In this document: positions 1 through 47,976 of the stretch, piece by piece
Position numbering within the stretch: position 1 is the stretch's first letter
Layout: each line of letters opens with the position of its first letter
NCBI GenBank assembly: GCA_964016885.1
Contig: OZ024743.1
Span: 274,784,001-274,848,000 of the forward strand
Reading direction: 5' to 3'
DNA: 64,000 nt
DNA from: Eledone cirrhosa
Lineage: Eukaryota
Program-made: the position numbers and the translations under genes
Notes under the pieces: generated by a model
What the model was told of the DNA's origin: nothing
Database searches by the model: none
What the model saw: only the letters and a program-made list of their open reading frames with translations

Positions 1-1337
<1,337 letters not shown>

Positions 1338-11657: not shown

Positions 11658-11724
11658 TATTTTATCTGATGAGGACGTACTGTTGAACTTAATTCAGTAC
11701 CTCTGAAATATGTATAATAAAATA
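11658..11724 (+). ncRNA. Minimal type-I hammerhead ribozyme (intact core)
   Basis: Stem I tattttat/ataaaata, CUGAUGA 11666-11672, stem II gga.gtactg/cagtac.tct, GAAA 11705-11708, near-palindromic stem III tatgta, AUA cleavage after 11716. Confidence 0.8.
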
Positions 11725-13749: not shown

Positions 13750-14189
13750 TCTATTTATTTATTTATTTATTTATTTATTTATTCATGTATTTATTTATGT
13801 ATTTATTTATTTATTTATTTATTTATCTACTTATAACAGAAGAAAAATATTATATTATAAACAAGTTTTAAACAACTAATAATCGTAAATACACTTACTT
13901 TTAAGACATATACTTAGAATATATTTCCCTTAAATTAATGTTATATGAATTTTATTCATCTCTTGTTTCTTTCTTCTCTCTCTCTAGCACTATCTTATCC
14001 TCTCTTCCTATTTCTCCTCTCTCTCCATAGTCGTTTAAATAAACGGTTGTTTTTCAATTATTTACATATTCATTTGCATATTCACACATAAGTTTTAAAA
14101 ATCCCTAATATATTTCCACTATCCAATGAATTTCCAACCGATAAGGTATGATTTTCATGGGTATGTCTCTATTTATAAAACAAACTTTG

Positions 14190-14252
14190 TATTTTATCTA
14201 ATGAAAGCGTATCAATGTGTCTTGGTACCCTTGAAATATATATAATAAAATA
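14190..14252 (+). ncRNA. Hammerhead ribozyme relic (core G5->A, probably inactive)
   Basis: tattttat-CUAAUGA, stem II aag.gtatcaa/ttggtac.ctt, GAAA-tatata-ta-ataaaata. Downstream sequence is shared with the copy at 30943. Confidence 0.7.
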
Positions 14253-14294
14253 AATATGGTTTTATAAATATAGTTTCCATTTATTGAATATCAT

Positions 14295-21918: not shown

Positions 21919-22109
21919 TATATAATAGAATAAATATATATAATTCTCTGAAGATAGCGCAACTATCAACTTGTCTGGTTGAAACATACTTATGTTAAAT
22001 ATCAGTTGATTTATTCATCATTCTTAAGACGTAAGTGTGTTTCAACCAGACAAGCTGAGAGTTGCGCTAAGCTTCTTCAGAGGATTGTATATATTTACTA
22101 TATTATATA
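21919..22109. repeat. Imperfect inverted repeat (~80 bp arms), each arm carrying a degenerate hammerhead core
   Basis: 21919-21996 vs 22028-22109. Each arm reads ..ctCTGAAGA..tagcgcaact.tca.cttgtctggttGAAAca.actta.gt towards the centre. Confidence 0.8.
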
Positions 22110-30524: not shown

Positions 30525-30526
<2 letters not shown>

Positions 30527-31055
30527 GATATTAAATAAATGGAAACTATATTTATAAAACCATATTTATTTCATTTCAAATCTATTTATCTATAAAACTG
30601 TCTATATTGTATTTTGTCTGAAGAAGGCATAACATATTGTTAATATGATATCCCTGAAATATATATAATTGTTTCTACTTTAGGCACAAGGCCAGCAATT
30701 ACCCAGTGCATTACTGGTACTTTATTTCATCCTTACGGGGTCGATAAAATAAAGTACCAGTAATGCACTGGGTAATTGCTGGCCTTGTGCCTAAAGTAGA
30801 AACAATTATATATATTTCAGGGATATCATATTAACAATATGTTATGCCTTCTTCAGACAAAATACAATATAGACAGTTTTATAGATAAATAGATTTGACA
30901 TACCGTTCAACATCGACTTGTATTTGAAAACTGTCTATATTGTATTTTGTCTGAAGAAGGCATAACATATTGTTAATATGATATCCCTGAAATATATATA
31001 GTGAAATAAATATGGTTTTATAAATATAGTTTCCATTTATTTAATATCGTATATA
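30525..31055. mobile_element. Nested fold-back structure: hammerhead-containing element plus S1 SINE
   Basis: Perfect 152-bp inverted arms 30576-30727 / 30747-30898 (19-bp spacer) inside outer inverted arms 30525-30573 / 31002-31050. Confidence 0.88.
30943..31008 (+). ncRNA. Minimal type-I hammerhead ribozyme (3'-truncated twins at 30610-30667 + and ~30807-30864 -)
   Basis: Stem I tattttgt/gtgaaata (three G-U), CUGAAGA 30951-30957, 14-position stem II with two mismatches, GAAA 30989-30992, palindromic tatata, AUA cleavage after 31000. Confidence 0.72.
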
Positions 31056-31157: not shown

Positions 31158-31886
31158 TAGAATTGGTGCTCTGAAATAGCGATGTATACATGAATGTATA
31201 TATAGTATATTTTGCAATATACTGTATGCTTAATTAAAAGCATTTTGAAGACCCCGCGCTATTGTTTTAAAGTAGTGACTATGTCACTTACTTCTTTTTT
31301 CAACAAACAATGGGAGATAAGCTGACAAATCTGTTTCATACTGTTGGTACTCCCCAGAGCTTAGCACTCGCTTTGTCTGTTGAAAATTATAAATGTTGGA
31401 TTCTTATAGAATTCCAGTAATAATCAGGAACTGATTATACAGAGCGATTGCCGGTCCAGCAAAAATTGAAATTTAGAATTGGTGCTCTGAAATAGTGATG
31501 TATACATGAATGTGTATATAGTATATTTGGCAATATACTATATGCTTAATTAAAAGCATTTTGAAGATTTGCGCTATTATTTTAAATATATGCTATTTTC
31601 AAAAATACACAGTGACTGATCGGCCGGATTTGCATCATAGCAGACTGGCTGATCAGTCAGATCTGCATATATTTTCACTAGCTCTGAAAGTGTGCTGGGT
31701 GAACAGTGAGCTGTACTGATGAAGAGTAATTCCCAGAAACATTAGTGTCTGCAGTTCTGTTCGCATGCCAACACAAGAGCAAGAATGAAGTGTTCATTCT
31801 ACTAACATGGCTATAAAATTGTGGCTTGTTTGCATAATTGCAAACGAATCGAATGTTATTATTAATATTTGAAAAACTCAGATTAC

Positions 31887-31890
<4 letters not shown>
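31157..31890 (+). mobile_element. Non-coding hammerhead-containing element (Penelope pLTR-like) with 115-bp direct repeats
   Basis: Direct repeats 31157-31271 and 31473-31586; 31671-31890 is homologous to 47720-47940; flanked by (TA)n. Confidence 0.65.
31708..31757 (+). ncRNA. Minimal hammerhead ribozyme (weak stem II)
   Basis: gagctgta-CUGAUGA-agagtaattccca-GAAA-cattagtg-UC-tgcagttc; GUC cleavage after 31749. Confidence 0.68.
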
Positions 31891-31917
<27 letters not shown>

Positions 31918-47052: not shown

Positions 47053-47310
47053 CTACGTACATGTATGTTTATGAGTGTATATATATATTTGTGTATGTGT
47101 GCGCACTCATGCGTATATATATTTCGGTGTGTGCGCGCACTCGTGCATATATATATATATGAGAAAATTTGCTCCGAAGGAACCTGCAGCCGTAGAATCA
47201 GCCAGATCCATGCAGTGATCATGTCTCGAGCTACCTGCCGGCGAAACAATTGTAACACGCAATAAACTGAGTCCAGATGCATCACTGACTTTTCGTTTTT
47301 ATACTATATA

Positions 47311-47377
<67 letters not shown>

Positions 47378-47408
47378 AAAAATGTTCGCACTACATGGCT
47401 GAATACAA

Positions 47409-47935
47409 TAAATATAATCTGAGTTTTCGAATATTAATAACATTCGATTCGTTTGGAATTATGCAAACAAGCCTCATTTATAAAGCCATGTCAGTAGAAT
47501 GAACCCTTCATACTTGCTCTTGTGTTGGCATGTAAACAGAACTGCCGGCATGTAAAGCCGGCCATTTATCGCTCGTATACAGGAAACTGACTGGCCAGTC
47601 TGCTGATATACAAATCTGGCTGATCAGTGGATCTGCTAATATGCAGATCTGACTGATCAGCCAGTCTGCTATTATGCAAATCAGGCCGATCAGTCACTGT
47701 ATATTTTAGAAAATAGCATTATTTTCACGAGCTCTGACAGTTGGCAGGTGAACAGTGAGCTGTACTGATGAAGGGTTATACCCAGAAACATTAGTGTCTG
47801 CAGTTCTGTTTACATGCCAACACAAGAGCAAAAATCAAGGGTTCATTCTACTGAAATGGCTTTAAAAATGAGGCTTGTTTGCATAATTGCAAACGAATCG
47901 AATGTTATTATTAATATTCGAAAAACCCAGATTAC

Positions 47936-47940
<5 letters not shown>
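47409..47940 (+). mobile_element. Hammerhead-containing fold-back element with ~138-bp inverted termini
   Basis: 47409-47545 is the reverse complement of 47800-47940; ribozyme at 47757-47806; (TA)n at the right flank and nearby on the left. Confidence 0.82.
47757..47806 (+). ncRNA. Minimal type-I hammerhead ribozyme
   Basis: Stem I gagctgta/tgcagttc, CUGAUGA 47765-47771, stem II gggt/accc (A-A at its base), GAAA 47785-47788, stem III cattagtg, GUC cleavage after 47798. Confidence 0.8.

Positions 47941-47976
<36 letters not shown>

Follow-up and report, generated by a model that had tools for sequence, protein, structure and literature searches.

Arm 5' ends across a 440-nt Eledone cirrhosa repeat family step at the predicted cut of a hammerhead ribozyme

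Across a 440-nt repeat family of Eledone cirrhosa, we found that the 5' ends of inserted arms form a ramp that ends in a cliff at the predicted cut of a hammerhead ribozyme, and this step at the cut site is a solid, family-wide observation. Insertions consist of two arms joined at their 5' ends, with short (+143/148) and tailed (~+180) 3' ends and with variable 5' ends that are in 3-4-fold excess in +12..-2. On balance we favour the reading that the insertion at 47372..47941 is a head-to-head (TA)n insertion of the 440-nt unit, likely mobilised by a Penelope-like reverse transcriptase, and that about one-fifth of arms family-wide likely end near +1 through copying of self-cut RNA.

The two-armed insertion, its ribozyme and its family

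The window is the whole 64,000-nt stretch of DNA analysed, and coordinates are its positions; positions in the unit are numbered from the predicted cut, with T47799 as +1. The element at 47372..47941 is one ordinary head-to-head insertion of the 440-nt non-coding unit within (TA)n, with the following parts.

47305..47371, no strand: left (TA)n target run, read from the sequence
47372..47408, minus strand: tail of the left arm, unit +179..+143, at this end only, parsed against the family
47409..47545, minus strand: left inverted arm, unit +142..+2, likely a cDNA of cleaved RNA, judging its template from family statistics
47546..47553, no strand: junction filler templated by nearby sequence of both arms, a microhomology-type join
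47554..47941, plus strand: right arm, unit -246..+143, ribozyme intact
47740..47823, plus strand: predicted type I hammerhead with extended stem I, predicted cut 47798/47799
47942..47970, no strand: right (TA)n target run, read from the sequence

The left arm is indeed the reverse complement of the segment downstream of the cut, as the original prediction had it (47408-47545 versus 47800-47941, 91.5% identity). That prediction also took the inverted copy to be the 3' cleavage product minus its first base; the exact match does stop at +2, with T47799 (+1) absent from the left arm, but the arm begins at 47372 and not at 47409, with a 37-nt tail (+143..+179) that has no counterpart in the right arm, and the junction carries filler. 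The arm end is not clean, as GCCGGC at 47544-49 equals 47557-62 and GGCATGTAAA at 47547-56 equals 47527-36, and an alternative profile parse extends the left arm to -4 at the cost of two mismatches. The right arm reaches 246 nt beyond the cut site with its ribozyme whole; because it crosses the site, its template was uncut, re-joined or circular RNA. Since each arm has sequence missing from the other, fold-back copying of one arm into the other is ruled out in either direction. The left arm here is probably, though not certainly, a run-off product of self-cut RNA, given that ~70-75% of the ends in its zone are excess, and this single locus is insufficient as proof of in vivo cleavage.

The ribozyme was called from its motif by eye and by regular expression. 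The core comprises CUGAUGA (47765-47771), GAAA (47785-47788), a 3-bp stem III with a UUAG loop and GUC (47796-47798), which gives the type I order of CUGANGA, GAAA and NUH with three stems and agrees with the cut position that had been predicted after GUC at 47798. Core columns are 95-99% conserved across family copies, and 47735-47825 folds with z = -5.4. In a canonical type I hammerhead R10.1 and Y11.1 are paired at the base of stem II, whereas here an A.A mismatch (47772/47784) occupies that position in ~95% of copies. The base pair is named as G10.1-C11.1 in PMC4209133, and the axolotl HHR_Amex2 sets a precedent for a mismatch there, its U.U being described with weak cleavage, 22% in 1 h as a monomer (PMC7229834). 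The lowest-energy predicted fold pairs the core away (-37.3 versus -31.1 kcal/mol), so that the active fold lies ~6 kcal/mol higher. Rfam returned no hammerhead match in two local scans, nor among the matches listed (150 of 295) for the whole window; the matches listed were only chance matches to microRNAs and snoRNAs.

Two recurrent changes were seen in this region. One and the same deletion of 3 nt from the loop of stem III occurs in ~12 of 76 listed rows on differing allele backgrounds (e.g., loci L161, L163, L168 and L173), possibly from the reverse transcriptase skipping a small hairpin. In addition, some read-through copies (L167, L217 and G000:C4:361732859) have 1-3 extra A precisely where the cut is predicted. 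Such A-type insertions at the C/T cut number 3 in one listing and 3 of 9 insertions in another; they may mark jumping of the reverse transcriptase or re-ligation across the cut, and are too few and post hoc to be more than a lead.

A search of the 3.0 Gb genome returned many full-length copies at 93-96% identity, and a family 30-mer has 1,936 exact genomic matches. The unit has a 440-nt period, is non-coding and strongly self-paired (z -10.7), and occurs in head-to-tail junctions, with two or more ribozymes in some arms (L093, L097, L103 and L113); one type I hammerhead per small non-coding tandem unit is the arrangement of non-LTR retrozymes. We segmented 189 loci by jumping profile alignment into 416 distinct arm ends. 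The usual insertion lies within or beside a TA run, and 5' truncation, partial tandems and an inverted truncated copy, all features of Penelope-like elements, are present. The 3' ends cluster at +143/+148 and ~+176..+183, which corresponds to the one-sided 30-40 bp tail and two 3' end classes of Penelope-like elements. Among 113 head-to-head junctions, with short ends defined as +130..152 and tail ends as +160..196, 39 pair short with tail, 2 are short-short, 2 are tail-tail and 70 are unclassifiable owing to an interrupted end. The window holds another copy.

31584..31892, plus strand: second copy of the 440-nt family in the window, whose two arms have their 5' ends away from the cut, at -157 and -82

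We rejected a MITE or transposase reading: fixed terminal inverted repeats and a uniform structure were not found, and almost every locus has its own arm lengths and junctions. A further abundant family, which we take to be SINE-like, often sits at one AT-rich spot (+109..+127) of many 440-nt family loci; it also makes fold-back insertions (30670-30804) and has at least 11 copies in the window. Transposase-free inverted termini have already been reported for Penelope-like elements (PMC8557442), and the 440-nt unit is likely mobilised by a Penelope-like reverse transcriptase; a comparison of the unit with five loci of the second family described below, made to look for 3'-end similarity to an autonomous partner, showed none.

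The distribution of 5' ends

End counts exclude the 47372..47941 locus, arms selected for ending near the site and colinear deletions; arms selected for length or core content were counted only beyond the selected part, and rates are per 1000 nt at risk. Towards the cut, the rate of non-colinear 5' ends climbs from 3.6 (+100..+61) through 6.2 (+60..+26) and 9.9 (+25..+13) to 18.7 in +12..-2 (34/1816), and then falls to 6.5 in -3..-15 and 4.1-4.8 further upstream (4.8 overall for -3..-240; 103/21558). The ratio of +12..-2 to upstream is 3.9 (p = 1e-9), or 3.3-3.7 with junctions called at their middle or inner edge. When +100..-240 was scanned, the top 14-nt window was +11..-3 and the strongest drop was at -3/-4, with p = 5e-4 for the top-ranked drop, uncorrected for the ~310 boundaries scanned. 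In +25..-2 the excess amounts to ~36 of the 164 arms at risk, or about one in five. Short, tail and other arms show an alike excess.

Genome-wide pattern lists gave 200 rows, 173 of them unique after removal of 27 duplicates; with 28 internal indel rows set aside, 145 ends were classed by hand. We found 115 of these in +12..-2 versus 30 in -3..-15 (p = 1.5e-9). The 73 rows from contigs C2-C8 alone divide 49 to 12 between the same intervals and 100 unselected rows 19 to 7 (p = 0.036). Overall the samples lean to contig C1 and young copies, and the segmentation, the unselected 100 and a pattern list overlap in part. Ends joined only to a microsatellite or tail show the same excess (~22 versus 5, hand count).

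By position, the 145 ends include 26 at +9, 13 at +1, 11 at +12, 10 at +3, 8 at -1 and 3 at +2. No single spike dominates, +9 exceeding +1, and single-position peaks are partly microhomology effects. The breakpoint histogram with which the original prediction was to be checked is not uniform, with a pile just 3' of the predicted cut and baseline just past it; the fixed one-base offset failed, with only 3 of the 145 ends at +2. Both arms end in +12..-2 at 10 junctions, in 8 of which one arm is able to start exactly at +1 (hand count), 4 through the TGCA palindrome (+1..+4) and 4 without microhomology. The latter 4 include three identical +1/+9 joins at unrelated loci; descent of these from one copy was ruled out, as flanks and arms differ. 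The 3' ends do not pile at -1, as priming of the reverse transcriptase at the cleaved 3' end would have them do (1 of ~18 3' ends among 76 rows).

Simulations with a constant rate of ends and joining by microhomology were flat across the site, with uneven single positions and no step. A long hairpin elsewhere in the same unit served as a control for stalling.

47577..47698 (approximate; ~-222..-101), plus strand: long internal hairpin, -56.7 kcal/mol in the reference copy

The inner part of this hairpin is as stable as stem I (-36.3 versus -35.6 kcal/mol), and its 3' strand has a rate of 3.5 by segmentation. Genome-wide counts made in the same way for both give the hairpin 5.8-7.4 (182 of ~1,300, with 62 true ends in 100 listed rows) versus 14-18 at the site, so the hairpin itself may be mildly raised. 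Of the two strands of stem I, only the 3' one (+25..-2) is raised, to 14.3; the 5' one (-34..-60) stays at 3.7, which excludes arm-to-arm annealing through the stem as the cause. As the cut itself marks the start of the 3' strand of stem I, a cliff at this place is expected from structure and from cleavage alike, and stalling is not fully separable from cleavage by DNA alone. Stem-strength alleles were considered as a cause and rejected, as a difference in unselected rows (5/47 versus 14/49) was not upheld in the pattern list.

A second, Penelope-like family

A second hammerhead-bearing family occupies a locus that the original prediction had taken as an unrelated family with the same offset.

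30525..31050, plus strand: compound locus of the second family, with reverse-complement +50..-1, forward -95..+2, a SINE-like fold-back (30670-30804), reverse-complement +2..-124 and forward -74..+50

It is no replicate. The usual +1 base of this family is A, so that the arm reaches +1/-1 against the family and G31001 is a private change, and the locus is made of five pieces, in which the SINE-like fold-back sits at -1/+2 and the colinear continuation of the arm (+2..-124) is found at 30805-30930. The simpler reading, not a proven one, is that the fold-back is a later insertion at a TA run beside the cut. At 30573-30901 the fold-back and ~95 nt of inverted duplication of the flanking element together form a 329-nt palindrome (96%).

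The second family has 38,852 exact 30-mer matches and a minimal, AU-rich hammerhead. Its genome-wide end rate at the site is 2.6-3.3 (2,378/~44,400, with ~59 of 100 listed rows true ends) and its upstream rate is 2.2 (1.1-3.8; 12 ends in 73 arms, by eye), which gives no clear excess at the site. This fits the weak cleavage of minimal hammerheads described in PMC4209133, and it also fits stalling.

A 583-aa frame found in relatives has YRDD and IY..YVG motifs (by eye), and among Atlas neighbours (0.94-0.98) 21-100% of members have HTH_animal, RVT_1 and GIY-YIG; Pfam and PDB returned no direct match for the reverse transcriptase frame. The motif order, reverse transcriptase then C-terminal GIY-YIG, marks the family as an autonomous EN+ Penelope-like element, the end of which is represented at 30525..31050. 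Long reverse transcriptase-endonuclease frames with a Cys-rich linker were seen at L253:1938-3689 (minus strand) and L250:1211-2733 (plus strand), and young copies with identical arms suggest recent activity. A subgroup without the GAAA half of the core has been amplified to several copies (L185, L203, L220, L222 and L236), so an intact ribozyme is seemingly not needed for its spread. Within the window, 11666-11714 and 14160-14292 are further hammerhead-like ends resembling this family, and hammerhead-like cores of a further family face each other at 21948-21988 (plus strand) and 22080-22033 (minus strand), in a short head-to-tail-inverted arrangement beside TA runs.

Origin of the step and related systems

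In the mechanism that we propose, nicks in both target strands would each prime a cDNA, which would begin at either of two internal sites. Synthesis on cut RNA would run off at +1; the two cDNA ends would then lose 0-25 nt by trimming and be joined through short microhomology or filler, whereby a sharp stop would become a ramp. Uncut, re-ligated or circular RNA would have been the template of arms crossing the site. The pairing of tail with short ends (39 versus 2+2) fits two primings on two target strands. The earlier proposal that a reverse transcriptase copied ribozyme-cut RNA and then switched thus survives in its first half, as ends pile 3' of the predicted cut, and not in its second, as the arms hold unique sequence.

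Alternatively, the reverse transcriptase could produce the step on uncut RNA, by stalling or dissociating within the extended stem I of 24 bp or at the folded three-way junction; we hold this explanation to be unlikely though of real weight. It would account for the raised zone, which coincides with stem I's 3' strand (a rate of 14.3), and for the second, weak-stemmed family without clear excess, and it would sit easily with a ribozyme that is non-canonical at the base of stem II and has a core-disrupting fold. However, the control hairpin, which is at least as stable and lies in the same RNA, has a rate of only 3.5-7, the rate climbs up stem I as the remaining helix shortens, and a predicted extension of the helix to -4..-10 gives just 8.0. 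At +13 stem strength shows no effect either, as the wobble-forming T variant is found in 30 of 65 breaks versus 47 of 100 copies (hand counts). RNA 5' ends at +1..+25 made by an internal cluster of transcription starts or by a host nuclease cutting the stem would suit the broad ramp, and a start site is described within Penelope pLTRs (PMC8557442); we think this improbable, as the cliff lies <=3 nt from the predicted cut, several arms begin exactly at +1 without microhomology and the control hairpin is far less affected.

The remaining two explanations appear very improbable to us. A single reverse transcriptase that copies cut RNA to its end and turns round, leaving a fixed one-base offset in unrelated families, would explain the offset at 47372..47941, which is real, and the coupling of arms within an insertion, which share rare alleles above random pairs (1.3% versus 0.43%) and tend to end together in -2..+30 (11/59, odds ratio 6.7, p = 0.002). 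The shared alleles, however, also fit two RNAs of one source locus or later conversion, and the turn is contradicted by the tail/short asymmetry, by a tail absent from the right arm and 246 nt absent from the left, by the scarcity of ends at +2 and by the compound nature of the second family's locus. The excess might be held an artefact, whether of sampling, of self-complementarity or of the way microhomology is called, in view of the palindromic TGCA at +1..+4, the many tallies by hand and the ambiguous parsing of self-complementary regions; yet null simulations are flat, the effect persists under three junction conventions and in rows from other contigs, and it is also seen in ends joined only to a microsatellite or tail. 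Run-off on self-cut RNA is our preferred reading.

The architecture of the 440-nt family resembles that of Penelope-like elements as described by Craig et al. 2021 (PMC8557442), with head-to-head arms, a one-sided 30-40 bp tail, partial tandems, a microsatellite target and a hammerhead near the 3' end, and differs from them in a unit without an ORF; the available text of that study does not compare truncation points with the place of cleavage. With the metazoan non-LTR retrozymes described in Cervera and de la Pena 2020 (PMC7229834) and bioRxiv 10.64898/2026.07.22.740005 it shares a small non-coding unit with one type I hammerhead, strong self-pairing, head-to-tail junctions and co-occurring autonomous Penelope-like elements, whereas here the copies are mostly dispersed two-armed insertions of <2 units and the sampled loci showed no long arrays. 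Cleavage and circular RNAs are described for retrozymes (PMC7229834, PMC7761336 and bioRxiv 10.64898/2026.07.22.740005). The in vitro system of the anole Poseidon PAc (Frangieh et al. 2024, PMC11167929) is alike in its two internal start sites of reverse transcription bounding the tail, in the cutting and extension of both target strands and in its AT-rich target. According to the available text of that paper, insertion in vitro was normal with ribozyme mutants and no RNA-seq read had its end at the site; in contrast to that dispensable cleavage, genomic ends are here enriched at the predicted cut. In R2, with an HDV-like ribozyme (Eickbush et al. 2013, PMC3774820), the cut likewise determines where the cDNA ends and influences the form of the 5' junctions, with variable microhomology-primed joins; ribozyme and clade differ, and the R2 cut is described as defining the full-length element, while here it would truncate a minority of arms.

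Our literature search, mainly of open-access main texts, returned no title on Penelope-like truncation points mapped to a hammerhead cut. In vivo cutting by the hammerheads of Penelope-like elements and retrozymes, and retrotransposition of cut RNA, are described as open in the available texts of PMC4209133, PMC8557442 and PMC7761336. The locus architecture was already known, and it is the family-wide step of ends at the predicted cut that gives a testable handle on this question. The histogram of breakpoints is a cheap readout from assemblies alone, comparable across families with strong and weak ribozymes, and the pairing of tail with short ends is genomic support for two-strand priming. We lean, by a little, towards regarding these breakpoints as a quantitative fossil record of germ-line self-cleavage, in which ~20% of integrated cDNAs would have had cut RNA as their template and the others uncut or circular RNA, and in which each insertion would result from two primings of reverse transcription, one per internal start site, joined end to end.
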